From the IMG/VR virus record IMGVR_UViG_2541047952_000002: a DNA stretch of 24,461 nucleotides, one strand, 5' to 3'. Below, in pieces: positions 3,722-21,554 of this stretch. Under the pieces are notes generated by a model. It worked only from the letters and a program-made list of their open reading frames with translations. It did not search any database and had not been told where the DNA came from. Position numbers and translations under genes: made by a program. Position 1 is the first letter of the stretch. Every line of letters begins with the position of its first letter. The DNA is from a virus. Taxonomy: Duplodnaviria; Heunggongvirae; Uroviricota; Caudoviricetes.

Positions 3722-3948
3722 TGGCTGATGCAATGGATCTCGTACAGCAGCGCGTTGAAGAAGAACGCCAACGCCATATCCGTGCTGCCCGTGCCAAAAC
3801 GCCGGGCGTGTCCCGCGTGCTTTGCATTGAGTGTGAAGCGCCAATTCCGCCAGCACGCCGCCGTGCCATTCCGGGTGTGCAGCTTTGCATTACCTGTCAG
3901 GAAATCGCAGAGCTGAAAGGCAAACATTACAACGGAGGTGCTGTATGA
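3721..3948 (+). CDS. TraR/DksA-family C4 zinc-finger protein
   Basis: 75 aa with C-x2-C...C-x2-C ('CIECEAPIPPARRRAIPGVQLCITCQ'), typical of the phage/plasmid TraR/DksA zinc-finger family. Translationally coupled to flanking genes. Confidence 0.7.
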   Translation: MADAMDLVQQRVEEERQRHIRAARAKTPGVSRVLCIECEAPIPPARRRAIPGVQLCITCQEIAELKGKHYNGGAV

Positions 3949-4802
3949 GCACCATCCTGAAATGGGCGGGAAATAAAACTGCCATAATGTCCGAACTGAA
4001 AAAACATCTTCCTGCTGGCCCGCGACTGGTTGAACCTTTCGCGGGTTCCTGTGCTGTGATGATGGAGACGGATTATCCCAGCTATCTGGTTGCGGATATT
4101 AATCCTGATTTAATCAACATCTATAAAAAGGTTGCCGCTGATTGTGAATCGTTTATATCTCGCGCCAGAGTTTTATTTAAGGAAGCAAACAGGGAGGTGG
4201 CTTATTACAACATAAGGCAGGAGTTTAATTACTCAACTGAAATTACTGATTTCATGAAAGCGGTATATTTCCTGTATCTCAATCGTCACGGTTACCGTGG
4301 TTTATGTCGCTATAACAAGAGCGGGCATTTCAACATTCCCTACGGTAATTATAAAAATCCGTATTTCCCTGAAAAAGAAATTCGCGCATTTGCAGAAAAG
4401 GCCCAGCGAGCAACGTTTATCTGCGCCAGCTTTGATGAAACGCTGGCGATGTTGAAGGCGGGGGATGTGGTGTATTGCGATCCGCCGTATGACGGTACGT
4501 TTTCCGGCTATCACACTGACGGCTTCACTGAAGATGACCAGTATCACCTGGCATCTGTTCTTGAACATCGGTCATCAGAAGGACATCCGGTCATTGTTTC
4601 TAACAGTGACACATCCCTGATCCGTTCGCTGTATCGCAATTTTACTCACCACTACATCAAGGCAAAACGCAGCATCGGTGTGGCAGCTGGCGAGGGTAAA
4701 TCAGCAACAGAAATCATTGCTGTTTCCGGGCCGCGCTGCTGGGTGGGATTTGATTATTCGCGTGGCGTGGATAGTTCTGCCGTGTACGGAGTACGTGCAT
4801 GA
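3945..4802 (+). CDS. dam: DNA adenine methyltransferase, Dam-like (N6-adenine MTase; GATC specificity inferred)
   Basis: ORF 3885..4802 trimmed to ATG 3945 (GGAGG 6 nt upstream, overlaps preceding stop). Motifs 'LKWAGNK', 'EPFAGS' (AdoMet binding), '[16 protein letters not shown]', 'PYFPE', 'FAEKAQ', 'VVYCDPPY' (catalytic DPPY), 'VSNSDT' are collinear with E. coli Dam as I recall it. Confidence 0.85.
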
Positions 4803-7213: not shown

Positions 7214-7305
7214 TTACGAGGGTTAACAATTCGTGCTCTTAATAATACCAGGCATATCAGGCTGATGAACGTAAAAAAACGTTTTACATCAGTAAGATTA
7301 TTATA

Positions 7306-7325
7306 TACTGTAAATATAAACAGTG
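7306..7325 (+). promoter_or_regulatory. LexA (SOS) box upstream of the tum/DinI-like module
   Basis: TACTGTAAATATAAACAGTG contains CTGT-N8-ACAG and matches 17 of 20 positions of the consensus TACTGTATATATATACAGTA. It lies 42 bp upstream of ATG 7367, with TTTACA (7283-7288) as a possible -35. Confidence 0.6.
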
Positions 7326-7366
7326 GTTATGTATACAGTATTGCTTGTGGTGTCATAGGAGGAAAG

Positions 7367-7555
7367 ATGCAGGACTATTTTTTGGAGTCTTTGAAGCTCC
7401 AGCGCATTGATTTTTTTCTTAAGCTTGTAGCGGCTAGTGAGTGTAGTGATGAAGAGAAGGGGCTGGCTTTGCAGTGGGTTTCTGAACTGACAGATGAACT
7501 CATGGCAAAAATCAGAAGCCACGAATACAACCGCTCAATGGATGTCATCAGCTGA
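7367..7555 (+). CDS. Hypothetical small protein (62 aa), first gene of the LexA-controlled module; possible Tum-like antirepressor component
   Basis: ORF 7265..7555 trimmed to ATG 7367 preceded by GGAGGA. Position downstream of gene A and behind a LexA box parallels 186 tum. No motif recognised. Confidence 0.4.
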   Translation: MQDYFLESLKLQRIDFFLKLVAASECSDEEKGLALQWVSELTDELMAKIRSHEYNRSMDVIS

Positions 7556-7565
7556 GGGGACTTTT

Positions 7566-7799
7566 ATGCGCATTGAAATAATGATCGATAAAGAGCAGAA
7601 GATTAGCCAGTCTACCCTGGACGCCCTTGAATCCGAGCTTTACCGCAATCTGCGCCCCCTGTATCCCAAAACGGTAATTCGTATCCGTAAAGGTAGCTCT
7701 AACGGTGTGGAACTGACCGGACTGCAACTGGACGAAGAAAGGAAGCAAGTGATGAAAATTATGCAGAAGGTGTGGGAAGACGACAGCTGGCTGCATTAA
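7566..7799 (+). CDS. dinI: DinI-family protein
   Basis: ORF 7494..7799 trimmed to ATG 7566 (GAGGGGA upstream). 'MRIEIMIDKEQKISQSTLDALESELYRNL...' and C-terminal 'KVWEDDSWL' resemble E. coli DinI ('MRIEVTIAK...TWESADDWF'). Confidence 0.7.
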   Translation: MRIEIMIDKEQKISQSTLDALESELYRNLRPLYPKTVIRIRKGSSNGVELTGLQLDEERKQVMKIMQKVWEDDSWLH

Positions 7800-7912: not shown

Positions 7913-8332
7913 CTATAAATTAGTTTTTATTAGATAGTGCCTTTGTGCTCCTGCTTTAGGGAAATCAGGTAATGACATTTGAAGTATATAACCCTGTTTT
8001 TCATAAAAGGGGAGCGCCTGGAAGCTAAATGTATCGACAAGGCCATGAATACAACCGTTCATCACACCTTCTTTCTCAGCCATGCTCATAAGTTTGCTAC
8101 CCAAACCGCCACTCCGTGTTGATTCACTCACCCAAAGATAATCAATACACAGCCATGGGCCTTTCCTGTTCGCAATTAATCCACCTACCATCTCGCCGAT
8201 TTCATTTCTGCAGTAAACACCGATCTGTCCATTTTTACTAAAATCGATAAACTGAGCATTATAGCTTCTTAGCCCAGCTAACAGTTCTTCTCTATCATAT
8301 TCAGTAACTTTATTAACTACTTGAATGTCCAT
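7913..8332 (-). CDS. GNAT-family N-acetyltransferase (139 aa), cargo gene
   Basis: Acetyl-CoA-binding-type motif '[17 protein letters not shown]' (R/Q-x-x-G-x-G/A), then 'FYEKQGY'. AT-rich, opposite strand to neighbours. Confidence 0.7.
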
Positions 8333-8548
8333 ACATATCCGTTTTAGTGATTATTTTATTTAGTGCTAAATGTTATAGATAAGTTTCCTTTGTGTTTCAA
8401 TACATTGTTGTAAATTAAATCAATTTACCATTTCCAGGTCCGTTCCTTGCTCACAGCGAACCTTTACCTTTGTTAGCTCGAATGTGTCGTATTCAAACGG
8501 TCATTCAGATACGGATTTTCACTTCCCTTAGATTGTGCATGACTATGC

Positions 8549-8680
8549 CGCATGAATCTGCATGATCGTTTGAGGATCGTTTTTGCTAAGGCCCACCAGA
8601 ACTGGCGGGCTTTTGCGTAGATCATGCAGGTGCATGAAAACCACTACATAAAGCGGGCAGGCGTGGCGGGGATACGAGCG
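8549..8680. other. Candidate cos/packaging region: inverted repeats, terminator-like hairpin and a cos-like GGCGTGGCGGGGA motif
   Basis: GGCGTGGCGGGGA (8660-8672) matches the first 13 nt of the 186 cohesive end as I remember it (GGCGTGGCGGGGAAAGCAT; P2 GGCGAGGCGGGGAAAGCAC), then diverges. Upstream are a 17-nt imperfect inverted repeat (CATGAATCTGCATGATC 8551-8567 / GATCATGCAGGTGCATG 8620-8636) and a GC hairpin plus T-run (8591-8614). Confidence 0.3.
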
Positions 8681-8803
8681 CGCGCACGTGGCTTCTAGAC
8701 ATATATCAGAGGCTTTGTTTCAATCGTAATTTATTAAATTGATTATGTTTGAATGATTTGTCATATTCTATAAGTGTTCAAGATGGCAATAAGAGGTGTC
8801 TTA

Positions 8804-10405
8804 ATGTTTGAAATTCCGAAGGCTGATGGTTCTAGCTTTGAATTGAAGTTGGCTCCTGGAGAGGTTGTTTTCTTGTTAGGACCAAATGGTTCCGGAAAGT
8901 CTTCTATAATTGATTTTCTATACAAAAAATATCCTAATAGATTTGAGAAAATAATTGCGCATAGACAAAATTGGATTCAGTCTAACAGATCTAACGTATC
9001 CAATCATGAGAGTCATCAAACATCAGGTTATATTAAGAGTTGGGATTCGCAGGAGGAGTCAAGATACAAAGATGATTATTCCGGTCGTAGAACAGAGATC
9101 TTACTGAACAAAATAATCTCTGCAGAGAATCATGCAGCCAGAACTTTTGTCAATAATTTCTCCCTAGCTTCTCGCGAGGGGCGTGGTAATTTAACTCTTA
9201 CGGAAACACCAGTTGAGAAAATTAATAGATGCCTGAATGAAGCTTTTATTAATATTACGATAAGAATAGATGATTCGGATTCTTTGTTGGTAAGTCGCAA
9301 TGGCTCTGATGAATATAGCTTGGCTCAGCTTTCTGACGGAGAAAGAAATGCAATATTTATTGCAATTGCCATTTTTACAGCCCCAGACGGCGCCTTTTTT
9401 TTAATCGATGAGCCAGAGAGGCATTTGCATCCTTCAATATCTCATTCGTTGATTAAATCTCTTTTAAATGAGCGCCCCGATTGTGGATATGTAATATCCA
9501 CACATGATTTATCTTTGCCATCAGCAGTACCTCATTCCAGAGTGTTGTTGCTGAGAGATTGCGTGTATGAAAATATGCGACCAGTTCGTTGGTATATAGA
9601 CGCAATTGACTCATTGGCGGAAATTGATGAGAGGCTTCGAGAAGACATACTTGGGTCAAGGAAAAAAATAATCTTTGTTGAGGGTAATACATCATCAAGC
9701 TTAGACCAGAAGCTATACTCGATAATTTTTCCAGGTTATTCGGTAATACCAAAAGCTAGTTGCGATTATGTCGAGCGTTCTGTGGATGGTCTGAGAGAGT
9801 CGGAAAATCTTCATCATGTAATTCCATATGGTATTATTGATAATGATAATAAACCTGAACGACAGGTTTCAAATCTTGAAATGAAAGGGGTTTATTCTTT
9901 AAATGTGCACTCAATTGAATCAATATACTATCATCCGGAATTAATTTTAAACGTAATTAATAATTATAAGGATTCTCAAAATATATCGGACCCCGATGCA
10001 TTATATGCGCAGTTGTGTGACGAGTCATTGTCCATGCTTTCCGAGCACAAAGAAAGACTATGCTGTAGAGCAATAGAGAAAGCCATTAGGTCTAAGCTAT
10101 TTTCGAATTTGCCAACTTTGAGAAGTATTGAAGCGGGGAATGATGTTAATATAAATATTAACGTTGGTGATTTTTTGAGAGAAGAAATTGTCTTTTTTGA
10201 AAACTGTCTACGTCAGCAAGATCTCATCAGTTTAGTCGAAAAATATCCAATTCGTGAAACTGCTTATATCGCTAAGGTGCATAAGCTATTGGGGTATTCA
10301 ACGCGTCAACTTTACGAGCATAATCTTTTACGCCTTGTAACGTCGAATTCTGAGGTGAAAAATATTGCCAAAAGGCTGATTGGCAATATTTGCAATGTTA
10401 TATGA
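8804..10405 (+). CDS. Solitary ABC-type ATPase fused to a Toprim-like nuclease domain (OLD-family / PARIS AriAB-like candidate anti-phage protein)
   Basis: ORF 8774..10405 (GTG) trimmed to ATG 8804, 7 nt after AAGAGG. Walker A 'GPNGSGKS', ABC signature-like 'LSDGERN', Walker B plus His 'FFLIDEPERHLHPS'. C-terminal half has 'KKIIFVEGNTSS' (Toprim glutamate) and 'GIIDNDNK' (DxD). Strongly AT-rich. Confidence 0.8.
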   Translation: MFEIPKADGSSFELKLAPGEVVFLLGPNGSGKSSIIDFLYKKYPNRFEKIIAHRQNWIQSNRSNVSNHESHQTSGYIKSWDSQEESRYKDDYSGRRTEILLNKIISAENHAARTFVNNFSLASREGRGNLTLTETPVEKINRCLNEAFINITIRIDDSDSLLVSRNGSDEYSLAQLSDGERNAIFIAIAIFTAPDGAFFLIDEPERHLHPSISHSLIKSLLNERPDCGYVISTHDLSLPSAVPHSRVLLLRDCVYENMRPVRWYIDAIDSLAEIDERLREDILGSRKKIIFVEGNTSSSLDQKLYSIIFPGYSVIPKASCDYVERSVDGLRESENLHHVIPYGIIDNDNKPERQVSNLEMKGVYSLNVHSIESIYYHPELILNVINNYKDSQNISDPDALYAQLCDESLSMLSEHKERLCCRAIEKAIRSKLFSNLPTLRSIEAGNDVNININVGDFLREEIVFFENCLRQQDLISLVEKYPIRETAYIAKVHKLLGYSTRQLYEHNLLRLVTSNSEVKNIAKRLIGNICNVI

Positions 10406-10407
10406 TT

Positions 10408-10429
10408 TTCCGCCTCCTAGGAGGCGGAA
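10408..10429. terminator. Perfect 22-bp palindrome between ATPase-Toprim gene and portal gene Q (probable bidirectional terminator)
   Basis: TTCCGCCTCCT|AGGAGGCGGAA is perfectly self-complementary. It lies 2 nt after the ATPase-Toprim stop and 10 nt before the Q stop. Confidence 0.5.
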
Positions 10430-10439
10430 TTATTGTCTG

Positions 10440-11474
10440 CTAAAGTGCGTAGCTTGAAAAAAGTATAATTTCATCAGCCAACCAGTTGTTTAATTCACTG
10501 AGCCTTTTCTGCAGCGGCATCAGCTCGTTGCGGACAAAGACGCGGCTGGCCTTTTCCACATCACCAAAGCCGCCTGTGTTGTTGGGGATAATCCCCATCA
10601 TCTGCGGCGGTACTCGGTGCGCCGCCATCATGTCATCCCGGCTCACATTCTTGATATTCAAAAACTCATCCTTTGCCGCCACCTCTGACAGTGGGATGAT
10701 CTGAATGCCGTCCTTTTTGCCGTTGGGCGAGTACATAAACAGGTTGCGAAAATTGCCCGGCCCTTTGGCGCTTTTCATGGCCTGGCGGATGTTGTTCACG
10801 TCTTCCTGATTCTGCGCGGCGTCGGTCATGTACATGATAAAACCCGCGTGGCTGCCGTTGATGTAGTACTTCCGGCGGAACAGAGTAGCGGACTCATTCA
10901 GCAAGGCGGAAGGGATGGCGGACAGGTATTCCGGCAGGCCATAAATCTCCTGGTTCAGGTCCGGCTCCATCAGGTGAAAGATGCTGCCTTTGGTGAACTC
11001 GTAGGGCTGCGTGGTCATGCCGTATTGCACAAACCAGTAAGTGTCTAGGTCGATCCCGCGGCGGGTGTATTTCGCCAGTGATGGCTCCAGCGACAGAATG
11101 CCGCCCAACCGGTTCGTCCGTTTCTCCAGGTAGGCATTACCGAACACCAGATAGTCCTGCACGAAACGGCTGAATGCCTGCTGACTTAATAGCGGGTGCG
11201 GAATGAACGTGCTGGTCAGAATGTTGCGCTTAACGGCAATCGGTGAGCTGTGATGTATGGCGGCACGGTAAGTGCGGGCCAGGCCGTCAAAGCTCACGGG
11301 CGGCTCATACCACTTATCCATCTGCACACATTCTACGTAGTCCAGGAGTTCGCGGCGGTCCAGTACCGGGATGGGGTCGCCAAAGCTGAACGCTTCGACG
11401 TGAGTTGTGTTCTTCTGCTGTACGGTTTCCTGCACTGGCGCGATGCGGGTAAGGGCGTCGTGTTCACTCATCAA
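10440..11474 (-). CDS. Q: Portal (capsid portal vertex) protein gpQ
   Basis: 344 aa, same length as P2 Q. 'FSFGDP' N-terminal region. Start overlaps terminase stop (ATGA). Divergent from the O-N-M-L operon as in P2. Confidence 0.9.
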   Translation of the reverse strand: MMSEHDALTRIAPVQETVQQKNTTHVEAFSFGDPIPVLDRRELLDYVECVQMDKWYEPPVSFDGLARTYRAAIHHSSPIAVKRNILTSTFIPHPLLSQQAFSRFVQDYLVFGNAYLEKRTNRLGGILSLEPSLAKYTRRGIDLDTYWFVQYGMTTQPYEFTKGSIFHLMEPDLNQEIYGLPEYLSAIPSALLNESATLFRRKYYINGSHAGFIMYMTDAAQNQEDVNNIRQAMKSAKGPGNFRNLFMYSPNGKKDGIQIIPLSEVAAKDEFLNIKNVSRDDMMAAHRVPPQMMGIIPNNTGGFGDVEKASRVFVRNELMPLQKRLSELNNWLADEIILFSSYAL

Positions 11475-17978: not shown

Positions 17979-18372
17979 AGCGGTGCCTTATGTCCGCAAT
18001 AACCCGGACAAACTGCATCTGTTTGTGGATAACGGTTCGCTGGTTGCTACGGGGGCCAGCTCCATGTCATGGGAGTACCGTTACACCCTGAACGTGGTGA
18101 TTGAGGATTTCAGCGGCGACCAGAATCTGCTGATGGCCCCGGTTTTGCTGTGGCTGCGGGATAACCAGCCCGATGCCATCAATAACCCGGCGTTACGGGA
18201 AAAACTATTTACCTTTGAGGTGGATATTCTGCGCAACGATGTCTGTGATATCAGCCTTAACCTGCAACTGACGGAACGTGTGCTGGTCAGCACTGACGGC
18301 AGTGTGTCGAGCGTTGAAGCGGTAGCAGAACCCGATGAACCTGAAGAAATGTGGACGGTGAAACGTGGCTGA
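17941..18372 (+). CDS. R: Tail completion protein gpR
   Basis: ORF 17920..18372 (TTG) trimmed to GTG 17941, 7 nt after AGGAG. 'SLRHALNKAV...LHLFVDNGSLVAT...YRYTLNVVIEDFSGD' resembles P2 R. Confidence 0.75.
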   Translation: MNKPQSLRHALNKAVPYVRNNPDKLHLFVDNGSLVATGASSMSWEYRYTLNVVIEDFSGDQNLLMAPVLLWLRDNQPDAINNPALREKLFTFEVDILRNDVCDISLNLQLTERVLVSTDGSVSSVEAVAEPDEPEEMWTVKRG

Positions 18373-18811
18373 ACTGCAGAAGGTGGACGACTGGCTTAGT
18401 GCCTTACTGGCGAATCTGGAACCAGTCGCAAGAAGCCGCATGATGCGCCAGCTGGCGCAGGAACTGCGCCGGACACAGCAGCAGAATATCAGGATGCAGC
18501 GCAATCCAGATGGCAGCAGTTATGAACCGCGCAAGGTCACGGCGCGCAGTAAAAAAGGCCGCATCAAACGTCAGATGTTTGCAAAGCTGCGCACCACCAA
18601 ATACCTGAAAACCGCCGCCAGCGCCGACTCTGCCTGCATACAGTTTGAAAGTAAGGTGCAGCGCATTGCCCGCGTTCACCATTATGGCCTGCGCGATCGC
18701 GTCAGCCGCAAAGGACCGGAAGTGCGTTACGCAGAGCGTCGTTTACTTGGAATGAATGAATATGCAGAAAATATAGTAAAAGATATATTGTTTCAGTTGC
18801 TAATAAAATGA
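18365..18811 (+). CDS. S: Tail completion protein gpS
   Basis: 148 aa (P2 S ~150), overlaps R stop. Position as P2 S. Confidence 0.8.
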   Translation: MAELQKVDDWLSALLANLEPVARSRMMRQLAQELRRTQQQNIRMQRNPDGSSYEPRKVTARSKKGRIKRQMFAKLRTTKYLKTAASADSACIQFESKVQRIARVHHYGLRDRVSRKGPEVRYAERRLLGMNEYAENIVKDILFQLLIK

Positions 18812-19005: not shown

Positions 19006-19659
19006 CTAATCCATAAATGGTTCAAGAATTGGACCTAATTCAGCATCTTCCATAATGATCCATCTGCAAAATGATGAAAAAGCTGCGTCTCTTTTTATCA
19101 TCATCTTCATTTTTTCAATTAAGTATTTTTTTTGTTCTGTTGGAGTATCTTCTTCATAATATTCATTAATATTTTTAATTAGTTTTTGGGTTGTTTTCAC
19201 TACTTGAGTACGAAGTGCCGCAGAAGTTAATTTTTTACTCATGGTATGATCGCTATTATATACTTTCTCAAGTAACTCTGCGGTCGTCTGCGTTTCAATA
19301 TCATTAAATAGTGCTGTTACTGTTATTTTTTTTGCTTTATAAGAATATCCTGGGAGTAATTTTACTCGATCCCATACCTTTTCTTTACAGCAATCAAGAA
19401 TGTTGTCATATTTTGATAGTTTTATATTGTTACATCTGGAACATGATAGATATAAATTATCCCAATCAAAAGCTCTTTCCACATCATCACCCTTGGGTTT
19501 AAAATGTTCAATGTTTATATCCAAAGGGTTCTTTGTTTCGCAAATGTAACATTTTCCATAAAAGCATTCCTGTAGTGCTTCATGTACATCAGCACCATCA
19601 TAACGTGCTTTCTTGGAAAGAGACTTTGGTGCAGGATATGTTCTATTAACCTTGAACAT
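19006..19659 (-). CDS. HNH endonuclease (217 aa), second gene of an ATPase + HNH pair (Septu PtuB-like)
   Basis: HNH-type motif 'CYICETKNPLDINIEHFKPK...FDWDNLYLSCSRCNNIK' (C-x2-C ... H ... N ... C-x2-C-N). Start ATG overlaps the upstream ATPase stop by 1 nt (TAATG). Very AT-rich. Confidence 0.8.
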   Translation of the reverse strand: MFKVNRTYPAPKSLSKKARYDGADVHEALQECFYGKCYICETKNPLDINIEHFKPKGDDVERAFDWDNLYLSCSRCNNIKLSKYDNILDCCKEKVWDRVKLLPGYSYKAKKITVTALFNDIETQTTAELLEKVYNSDHTMSKKLTSAALRTQVVKTTQKLIKNINEYYEEDTPTEQKKYLIEKMKMMIKRDAAFSSFCRWIIMEDAELGPILEPFMD

Positions 19660-20888
19660 TATTTCTCCTGAGAATTTGCTTTTTTATATTTTAGTATCTG
19701 CATTTTTGCATAGTCAATAAATGCACTTGCATGGATGTCCATGGATTCATCTAAAGGTGCTAAGGATTGTATTATGTTATTGGCAGTTTCAATATTGTTG
19801 TTGTTAATATTGTCAATAATATCTTGAAGTTGTTCTAACTTATCTGAAAGAACTTTAGATATTGGACTTACTCCGAATAATTCTTGAAGGATGATACCAT
19901 AAGAATATGAAGACACATCACTAATTTTCGCGTTGGTCGATAGATCATAAATGATGGCATTTGTGACGGATGTAACAACAAACGGAGAATGTGTAGTGAC
20001 AATGAATTGTACTTTAGGAAAGGAGTGACTAAAAAATCTTAATATTTGCTTTTGCAAAGAAACATGTAAATGCGCATCTATTTCATCAATAAAAATAATA
20101 CCTTCGATACTGTCAGGTGTTAAACCCCACATTTCTACTCTCATTATTAAGTCAGCGTAAATTCTCAATATTGATGAGTGGCCAGAAGATAATGTTTGAA
20201 AAGTAAACTTATCTTTACCATCTTGATTGAGATAAAATTTTCCTTCGTTACTATCAAACGTTAGTAAGAGGTTTTTATCTTCAAAAAGTTCCTGCATATC
20301 AGTTTCAATTTTATCAAACCATTTCTGTATCCGCTGAGCTTTCTTATGGTCATTATCAAAAGAAATTGCATAGCTCTGAGCTGTTTTTAAACTAACCAAA
20401 TAATTCTCAAAGAAATCATCACCATCTACTTCATTAGAAAAATGTGATTTTTCATTAATTAAAGCCGATAGCCTAGGAACGGCAATTGGCGAGGTAATTG
20501 ATGCTTCACGTAGAGCTTTGTGAAATCTCAATAGTGAACGTGTTTCACCTTCTTTTTCTTTTGTTTCTATTCTAATGGCTTTTAATTGTTCAATTTTTAA
20601 TTCAATGTTTTTTATTTCTTCAGAATAAAAGTTGTAATTAACGTCGTCACGCCCGCCGTTATTTAAGTGATATTTGTAGGACTCTAACGTATTGTATAAA
20701 TTATTGATGTTATGATCATTAGGTCTATCTATCTTATTTTTAAGGAAATCATAAATAGATCTAATAAAACTAGTTTTTCCACACCCGTTACCACCAGTTA
20801 TTATGAGATTTTTACCGTCAAGCAATAAGTTTGCTGTCTTATTAGTGTATGGAATTGGAGCATAAATTTCATTTATTGATGTAAGCAT
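19659..20888 (-). CDS. ABC-type (AAA_15/AAA_21-like) ATPase (410 aa), first gene of an ATPase + HNH pair (Septu PtuA-like)
   Basis: ORF 19659..20987 trimmed to ATG at 20886-20888 (AAGGGA 7 nt upstream); the longer form would overlap the V start. Walker A 'GGNGCGKTS', 'LSSGHSSIL', Walker B plus His 'IIFIDEIDAHLHVS', 'FIVTTHSPF'. Confidence 0.8.
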   Translation of the reverse strand: MLTSINEIYAPIPYTNKTANLLLDGKNLIITGGNGCGKTSFIRSIYDFLKNKIDRPNDHNINNLYNTLESYKYHLNNGGRDDVNYNFYSEEIKNIELKIEQLKAIRIETKEKEGETRSLLRFHKALREASITSPIAVPRLSALINEKSHFSNEVDGDDFFENYLVSLKTAQSYAISFDNDHKKAQRIQKWFDKIETDMQELFEDKNLLLTFDSNEGKFYLNQDGKDKFTFQTLSSGHSSILRIYADLIMRVEMWGLTPDSIEGIIFIDEIDAHLHVSLQKQILRFFSHSFPKVQFIVTTHSPFVVTSVTNAIIYDLSTNAKISDVSSYSYGIILQELFGVSPISKVLSDKLEQLQDIIDNINNNNIETANNIIQSLAPLDESMDIHASAFIDYAKMQILKYKKANSQEK

Positions 20889-20897
20889 ATATTCCCT

Positions 20898-20915
20898 TGT
20901 ATCGTTAACAGTACA
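20898..20915 (+). promoter_or_regulatory. Candidate PV late-promoter Ogr/B box (TGT-N12-ACA)
   Basis: TGTATCGTTAACAGTACA lies ~60 bp upstream of the V start, with an A/T-rich -10 candidate (GATAATAAT) downstream. It starts 10 bp from the PtuA-like start codon on the opposite strand. Confidence 0.45.
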
Positions 20916-20975
20916 ACTACAACACTGATAATAATACAACTTATTGAGATACAGTTCACCTTTAAGGGGGGAAGG

Positions 20976-21554
20976 GTGAACGCACAATTAACCGAAATCA
21001 TGCGCCTTATCACCAACCTGATCCGCACTGGGGTAGTCACCGAAGTGGACAGGGAAAACTGGCTTTGCCGAGTGAAAACGGGCGAGCTTGAAACTAACTG
21101 GATCAGTTGGCTGACGCTGCGTGCAGGAAATGCCCGGACATGGTGGCGACCATCGGAAGGTGAGCAGGTGGTGCTGCTGAGTCTGGGGGGCAATCTGGAA
21201 ACGGCCTTTGCGCTGCCCGCTGTCTATTCGAATCAGTTTGCGCCACCGTCGACGTCGGCGGACGCCTGTGTGACAGAATATCCTGACGGTGGCTGGTTTG
21301 AATACGAACCTGCCACCGGGCGCTGGTATGTCAGGGGCATCAAATCCATGGTCATTGAGGCTGCCGATAACATCACCCTGAAAACCAGTGAGTTTGTGCT
21401 GGAGGCTGACCGCACGCGTATTAACAGCGAAGTGGTGATCAATGGTGGCGTTACCCAGGGCGGCGGAGCGATGAGCTCTAACGGGATTGTGGTTGATGCG
21501 CATCAGCATACTGGCGTCCTGAAAGGCGGCGATACAACCGGAGGCCCGGTATGA
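20976..21554 (+). CDS. V: Baseplate spike/assembly protein gpV
   Basis: 192 aa, GTG start with AAGGGGGG RBS. 'WLTLRAGNARTWWRPSEGEQV' and 'HQHTG...GGDTTGGP' resemble P2 V. Confidence 0.85.
   Translation: MNAQLTEIMRLITNLIRTGVVTEVDRENWLCRVKTGELETNWISWLTLRAGNARTWWRPSEGEQVVLLSLGGNLETAFALPAVYSNQFAPPSTSADACVTEYPDGGWFEYEPATGRWYVRGIKSMVIEAADNITLKTSEFVLEADRTRINSEVVINGGVTQGGGAMSSNGIVVDAHQHTGVLKGGDTTGGPV

Follow-up and report, generated by a model that had tools for sequence, protein, structure and literature searches.

ariAB, a probable merged PARIS gene carried as cargo between cos and portal gene Q of a P2-family prophage

Introduction

The DNA considered here, IMG/VR virus record IMGVR_UViG_2541047952_000002, is a stretch of 24,461 nucleotides (the window) that represents a P2-family prophage, closest to Fels-2 and to the Klebsiella 'Felsduovirus' phages. 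The left part of the window carries, in order, an integrase gene, the CI repressor gene, a Dam methylase gene, gpA, a small open reading frame (ORF), a DinI gene and a GNAT acetyltransferase gene (the last on the minus strand), followed by cos, the ORF with which this report is concerned, Q, P and the capsid genes. This ORF, referred to here as ariAB, encodes an ABC ATPase and a Toprim-like domain on one polypeptide. It is probably a merged PARIS gene that constitutes a self-contained cargo between cos and Q, and it is likely to protect the lysogen by abortive infection.

PARIS has been defined as an AAA_15/AAA_21 ATPase together with a DUF4435 protein; single-gene fusions were noted and hidden Markov models (HMMs) built in the same study, in which the gpA–gpQ region of P2-like phages was also validated as a defence hotspot (Rousset et al. 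2022, PMC9122126). Of the 11 PARIS clades described, two are 'merged' AriAB clades with a single origin from the two-gene clade 9 (Burman et al. 2024, PMC11464382).

The ariAB gene and its motifs

The ORF occupies positions 8804..10405 on the plus strand and encodes 533 aa from its ATG. An in-frame GTG at position 8774 would add 10 codons and yield a protein of 543 aa; however, the ATG is the likely start, since a Shine–Dalgarno sequence lies 7 nt upstream of it and homologues of 533 aa align end to end. The N-terminal half contains the motifs GPNGSGKS (aa 26–33), LSDGERN (aa 176–182) and FFLIDEPERHLHPS (aa 198–211), while IIFVEGNTSS (aa 289–298) and IIDNDNK (aa 344–350) are found in the C-terminal half. 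Every motif quoted in the original prediction, which had been made from the sequence alone, was therefore recovered within a single 533-aa ORF and in the order given. The GC content of the ORF is 0.369, compared with 0.529 in gpA, 0.547 in Q, 0.573 in P and 0.497 in the whole window, in agreement with the earlier description of an AT-rich ORF amid GC-rich flanks (0.37 vs 0.53–0.57 in the adjoining phage genes).

Family assignment

In Pfam searches, the N-terminal half of the protein was matched by AAA_21 (5.8e-17; 63.2 bits, cutoff 27), AAA_15 (4.9e-13; 49.9 bits, cutoff 32.1) and ABC_tran (5.8e-12), and residues 287–393 of the same polypeptide by DUF4435 (1e-09; 38.9–40.3 bits, Pfam cutoff 27). 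All four exceed their Pfam gathering cutoffs, and the ATPase and DUF4435 matches in one protein are the combination by which merged PARIS is detected (AAA_15/AAA_21 plus DUF4435; PMC9122126).

The top PADLOC model for the protein was, by a wide margin, AriAB PDLC02982 (7.3e-58), followed by AriAB PDLC02981 (8.4e-22) and then by AriA models, PtuA and AriB (1.1e-10). When a spread sample of 31 sequences was drawn from an alignment of 102 homologues, all 31 were matched by PDLC02982, with a best E-value of 7.4e-70. A full-length match was also obtained with PHROG 25246 (2.7e-70), which is labelled 'ABC transporter'. On the strength of these profile matches, ariAB can be assigned to an already described form of PARIS, and existing tools detect its family. 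The suggestion that the gene might represent an unclassified subfamily does not survive this result, as a fused-PARIS model picks the protein up and two merged AriAB clades are on record (PMC11464382). The alignment with PDLC02982 covers residues 56–399 of the protein and positions 105–436 of the 570 in the profile, so that the first 55 aa and the helical domain at the C terminus lie outside it. Because both ends of the protein are left unaligned, the family of about 537 aa to which it belongs may be a compact subgroup of AriAB.

Homologues and conservation of the catalytic residues

More than 1,100 relatives of the protein were returned by a database search. The top 120 are full-length, about 537 aa long, with the same pair of domains, and come from Citrobacter, Enterobacter, Erwinia, Mesorhizobium, Burkholderia, Acidobacteria and Bacteroidota. 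In the alignment of 102 homologues (36–97 % identity), the invariant positions include K32, Q55, S177-D178-G179, D202-E203-P204-E205 and H234 in the ATPase, as well as the acidic Toprim residues E293, D301, D346, D348 and E372. Both catalytic centres are under strong purifying conservation. The residue classes needed for defence by the PARIS system of E. coli B185, namely the Walker A lysine and the Toprim glutamate, are present, and the motif YPIRET (aa 481–486) is conserved in the C-terminal helical domain.

An identical protein occurs in E. coli draft assemblies under the name 'AAA family ATPase', and the 90 %-identity cluster also includes proteins from Citrobacter, Enterobacter and Leclercia, some of which are named 'ATP-dependent nuclease'. 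A megablast search of 5,426 complete E. coli genomes yielded no copy of ariAB; only the GNAT gene and the cos flank were matched. Among phage records (tblastn, n=50,697), a single match was obtained, with 27 % identity, in Oenococcus phage phi9805. This temperate phage of a Gram-positive host (KF147927 / NC_023559) encodes a full-length fused ATPase–DUF4435 homologue at 36764–38125, annotated as 'ABC transporter', the same label as that of PHROG 25246. Merged PARIS genes are likely to be systematically mis-annotated across phage databases.

Predicted structure

The full-length AlphaFold2 model of the protein (mean pLDDT 87.8) consists of a compact ABC head, a linker, a four-stranded Toprim-type alpha/beta core (aa 288–365) and an all-helical tail; the only insert in the head is a short helical one (aa 67–146). 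The presence of an ABC ATPase and a Toprim-like domain on one polypeptide, as put forward in the original prediction, is thus agreed upon by Pfam, PADLOC and the predicted structure.

A Foldseek search with the full-length model returned only the heads of ABC, SMC, Rad50, PtuA and GajA proteins and was uninformative for the nuclease half. As ABC-type heads dominated that search, residues 271–533 were modelled alone (pLDDT 89.5, pTM 0.82). In the fold comparison, this part scored 11.0 against AriB (8v46_D, 199 residues aligned), compared with 6.6 for the Toprim domain of a class 2 OLD protein (6nk8), 5.4 for GajA (8u7i), 5.2 for TsOLD (6p74) and 4.4 for the OLD protein of retron Eco8 (9lp9). 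AriB stands well ahead of the other structures, and its alignment extends past the Toprim core into the helical domain. The nuclease half is accordingly modelled with an AriB-like fold.

Boundaries of the cassette

The features of the cos-to-Q interval are compiled in Table 1. The left boundary had been described as a cos-like site, and this description holds: GGCGTGGCGGGGATACGAG agrees with P2 cosL at 14 of 19 bases and belongs to a stretch of roughly 145 bp, terminated by GGCGTGGCGGGGATACGAGCGCGCGCA, which is shared almost unchanged with Fels-2 and the Fels-2-like Klebsiella phage ST437-OXA245phi4.2. Homology ends immediately after GAGCGCGCGCA, and homology to relatives is resumed at the Q stop; on the basis of these breaks, the ariAB cassette spans approximately positions 8690–10430. 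The five positions of the cos 19-mer that differ from P2 are shared, as is the whole 19-mer, by Fels-2-like phages of Salmonella and Klebsiella and by the element in the window, which suggests a lineage-specific cohesive-end sequence.

Table 1. Positions of features in and around the ariAB cassette of the window
Feature	Position	Strand	Basis and remarks
Conserved cos region of Fels-2-like prophage	8545..8688	.	Left edge of the cargo slot; contains GGCGTGGCGGGGATACGAG at 8660–8678
AT-rich cassette leader	8690..8803	+	Shine–Dalgarno AAGAGG at 8791–8796; probable own promoter (inferred)
Compact AriA-like ABC ATPase domain, codons 1–268	8804..9607	+	Pfam, invariant residues, AlphaFold2/Foldseek
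ATPase sites			Walker A K32; Q-loop Q55; signature LSDGE 176–180; Walker B/D-loop D202-E203-P204-E205; H-loop H234
Toprim core (DUF4435, AriB-like), codons about 286–395	9659..9988	+	Pfam, PADLOC AriB, fold
Toprim core residues			E293-G294, D301, D346-x-D348, E372
C-terminal all-helical domain, codons about 396–533 and stop	9989..10405	+	Continues the AriB-like fold
Perfect 22-bp palindrome, TTCCGCCTCCTAGGAGGCGGAA	10408..10429	.	Most likely a bidirectional terminator of ariAB and the convergent P–Q operon
Portal gene Q	10440..11474	-	Pfam Phage_portal 8.2e-18; right edge of the cargo slot

The leader of ariAB is partly conserved with that of an 84 %-identical prophage gene of Enterobacter hormaechei, while the sequence between cos and the leader differs. 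The leader probably contains a promoter of its own; a consensus promoter scan detected no sigma-70 site with at least 9 of 12 matches in it.

The perfect 22-bp palindrome reported in the original prediction is present. It begins 2 nt past the ariAB TGA and ends 10 nt before the Q stop; no other perfect palindrome in the window is as long, the runner-up measuring 16 bp. Its predicted RNA fold has an energy of −17 kcal/mol (z = −3.3), which none of 200 shuffled sequences equalled, and it is also detected by a terminator scan. P2 has an annotated hairpin, tQ, 5 nt beyond the Q stop, a putative terminator of the P operon. A hairpin past the Q stop is also found in the Fels-2, Klebsiella and E. coli relatives, its sequence differing from one to the next, and the Enterobacter copy has one with an altered sequence at the same position as in the window. 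Since relatives and P2 have hairpins at the same place, the palindrome is most likely an ordinary bidirectional intrinsic terminator and the positional equivalent of tQ.

The gpA–gpQ hotspot

The gene, with its leader and terminator, is a solitary cargo (a moron) in the gpA–gpQ variable region. In the same cos-to-Q slot, Fels-2 carries a hypothetical gene (565 aa), Klebsiella phages carry an AIPR/Abi-alpha-like gene, and other relatives carry TIR or SEFIR genes. The locus had been equated with the classic tin/old locus of P2, which is correct insofar as both belong to the gpA–gpQ hotspot in the broad sense of Rousset et al.; however, the sub-slots differ, since the old and tin genes of P2 are placed between A and cosR, with nothing but tQ in the cosL–Q gap, whereas ariAB lies between cos and Q.

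Homologues with 84 % (E. hormaechei) and 63 % (Erwinia) identity are likewise located near the portal gene of P2-like prophages. The former occupies the same gpA–portal interval as ariAB, and in the latter case a DUF2806 gene intervenes between the homologue and the portal gene. More distant homologues are solitary, with AlpA or resolvase genes close by or in ordinary chromosomal surroundings. The earlier view of ariAB as a one-gene defence or superinfection-exclusion module is thus upheld as regards the solitary cargo gene, for which defence is the best-supported role; the activity itself would follow by analogy with characterized systems.

Comparison with known systems

Like other merged PARIS proteins, the product of ariAB is one polypeptide in which an AAA_21/AAA_15 ATPase is followed by a DUF4435 Toprim domain, encoded by a solitary gene on a mobile element; it differs in the two terminal segments that the dedicated model leaves unaligned. 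The integron cassette Brc59, a reported AriAB homologue, is reported to give strong phage defence (preprint, bioRxiv 10.1101/2024.07.02.601719). No published experimental work on the subgroup of about 537 aa was found.

In the two-gene PARIS of E. coli B185, the ATPase and the nuclease are separate proteins (AriA, 464 aa; AriB, 306 aa; PDB 8ux9, 8v45–8v49), whereas here they are fused. The distance between Walker A and the signature is 145 aa (K32 to S177), compared with about 327 aa in B185 AriA (K39 to approximately residue 366), which bears out the short insert noted in the original prediction, and identity in structural alignments is very low (12–14 %). A two-gene system of the B185 type was rejected on account of the single ORF and the lack of the long AriA insertion domains.

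The Old protein of P2 has in common with the ariAB product the single-gene ATPase–Toprim architecture, the status of a lysogenic-conversion gene and a position within the A–Q interval of a P2-family genome, but it is longer (586 vs 533 aa), and the two genes flank cos on opposite sides: old is found on the A side and reads towards A, ariAB on the Q side, reading towards Q. The C-terminal half of the ariAB product gave no match to OLD-like_TOPRIM (PF20469) even at E = 10, while P2 Old (NC_001895) scored 1.2e-17 with the same library, and the BLASTP alignment of the two proteins covers no more than 127 aa, all in the ATPase (27 % identity, E 2e-6). The grouping with P2 Old made in the original prediction is therefore not sustained, as the two proteins are not close relatives, and a true orthologue of P2 Old was rejected in view of the missing Toprim match.

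Gabija GajA, a class 2 OLD protein, has the same ATPase–Toprim layout and gave weak HMM matches (1e-9 to 1e-10) and weak structural matches, but its Toprim domain is from another family and the similarity is far weaker than that to AriAB. A Gabija system was rejected, as there is no adjoining ORF for a GajB UvrD-like helicase; ariAB is flanked instead by the cos region and portal gene Q.

Proposed mechanism and alternative explanations

In B185 PARIS, three AriB subunits are sequestered by an AriA hexamer, and the ATP-dependent binding of Ocr to AriA leads to the release of AriB, which dimerizes and cleaves tRNA-Lys (PMC11464382). By analogy, the ATPase domains of the ariAB product would hold the nuclease inactive in the resting state until a phage-encoded trigger protein is recognized in an ATP-dependent manner, the triggers in B185 being T7 Ocr and T5 Ptr1/Ptr2. 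The Toprim domains might then pair to form an active nuclease that cuts the anticodon loops of host tRNAs, and the resulting arrest of translation would lead to abortive infection, protecting the lysogen against other phages. The activation step would have to differ in detail from that of B185, because the nuclease is covalently tethered and the AriA insertion domains are mostly missing; speculatively, it could take the form of a rearrangement within the monomer or dimer, in place of release from a hexamer.

Several observations weigh against the assignment of ariAB to PARIS and the function derived from it. Most of the AriA insertion domains (about 180 aa), which form the hexamer interface and the trigger pores, are absent, and the published release-then-dimerize step cannot apply literally to a fused protein. 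Foldseek TM-scores to AriB are just 0.38–0.41, and AriB was not found in PDB by sequence, whether the full protein, the 102-sequence profile or the C-terminal half (E = 10) was used; the link to AriB came only from the fold comparison. PDB sequence matches to AriA reach only 2e-5 to 2e-7 and cover the signature/Walker B region with the single sequence and the C-terminal third of the ATPase with the family profile. The kinship to the characterized B185 proteins is real but remote. Moreover, no report of a phenotype, trigger or substrate was found for this protein or for the family of about 537 aa.

The missing insertion domains and the tethered nuclease keep an OLD-like mode of action a live rival, albeit an improbable one, in which a single-polypeptide ATPase–Toprim enzyme of the class 1 type would degrade DNA on a host-state signal (e.g. 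RecBCD inhibition) without recognizing a phage protein or cutting tRNA. The shortness of the ATPase insert points to a simple dimer like that of TsOLD, and the prophage region is the one in which P2 old resides, whereas the single-polypeptide ATPase–Toprim architecture is common to class 1 OLD and merged PARIS and does not discriminate between them. What argues against an OLD enzyme is the Toprim half: PF20469 fails to match it, the DUF4435/AriB match is specific, AriB is the best fold match with the helical domain included, and the alignment with P2 Old does not reach beyond the ATPase. Whether fused AriAB acts differently from class 1 OLD is described as unclear in a review on OLD nucleases (PMC10568477). 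It is also conceivable, although we would not wager on it, that the compact AriAB family represents a mechanistically distinct branch of PARIS, with another sensing surface and an activation in cis or within a dimer that is closer to class 1 OLD logic; such a family might recognize different triggers or cut different RNA targets.

Somewhat less credible still than the OLD-like enzyme is a selfish role without meaningful anti-phage activity, either as an addiction (toxin–antitoxin-like) module or as another kind of cargo, for instance one that excludes satellites or plasmids. PARIS has been framed as toxin–antitoxin-like (PMC10802264), ariAB is AT-rich and horizontally mobile, its absence, by megablast, from all 5,426 complete E. 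coli genomes marks it as rare, and defence was seen for less than half of the hotspot systems that Rousset et al. cloned. Yet the differential stability on which classical addiction depends is impossible for a single fused polypeptide, the family is large with catalytic residues strictly conserved across phyla, and recognized defence genes fill the same slot in relatives. The notion of an ordinary ABC-transporter or ABC-F ATPase subunit stems from database names, such as 'ABC-type cobalamin/Fe3+-siderophores transport system ATPase subunit' and the 'ABC transporter' labels of PHROG and GenBank, and from the transporter nucleotide-binding domains and ABC-F proteins that lead the PDB sequence matches. 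It has almost no probability, given that NCBIfam transporter models remain far below their cutoff (best 42 bits vs 265), that no permease or substrate-binding gene is found nearby and that a conserved Toprim nuclease makes up half of the protein; domain content and genomic context effectively refute it.

If ariAB is a merged PARIS gene, its annotation is routine, in that one more gene of this type is added to a known P2 hotspot from behind the public labels 'AAA family ATPase' and 'ABC transporter', and what novelty is left concerns how the compact fused form works. The gene offers a handy experimental handle, being compact, single, native to E. coli and provided with a defined leader and terminator. 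It is suited to asking how fused PARIS silences and then activates its nuclease without release, and whether it does so in a PARIS-like or a class 1 OLD-like manner.

Other genes of the prophage

The hotspot's second sub-slot, which extends from DinI to cos, is filled by the gene of a 139-aa GNAT acetyltransferase (7913–8332, minus strand; Acetyltransf_1 8e-10; 39.5 % GC), for which PADLOC returned no match. Identical ariAB copies occur both with and without this gene, which indicates that the two sub-slots exchange cargo independently.

Two further genes are situated between gpA and the cargo, an arrangement shared with Fels-2 (TumB-like). A small conserved ORF (7265–7555, plus strand) belongs to PHROG 698, of unknown function, and the 62-aa gene model from related contigs is probably the correct one. 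It is followed by the gene of a DinI-family protein (7566–7799, plus strand; 6.6e-23). Directly upstream of gene A, and overlapping its start, a D12-class N6-adenine DNA methyltransferase is encoded (Dam-like, 5e-77; 3885–4802, plus strand), which may act as an orphan methylase and protect against restriction.

A Septu system is located at 19006–20987 (minus strand). It comprises a 442-aa AAA_21/AAA_15 ATPase (PADLOC PtuA 2e-138) and, directly after it, an HNH partner of 217 aa (PADLOC PtuB 5e-100). The module, with a GC content of 31.7 %, is inserted antisense between the tail genes gpS (18365–18811) and gpV (20976–21554), a position that we take to be the variable site of P2 orf30. The prophage thus carries two ABC-ATPase/nuclease systems, ariAB and Septu, and may provide a natural case for the coexistence of two related systems.

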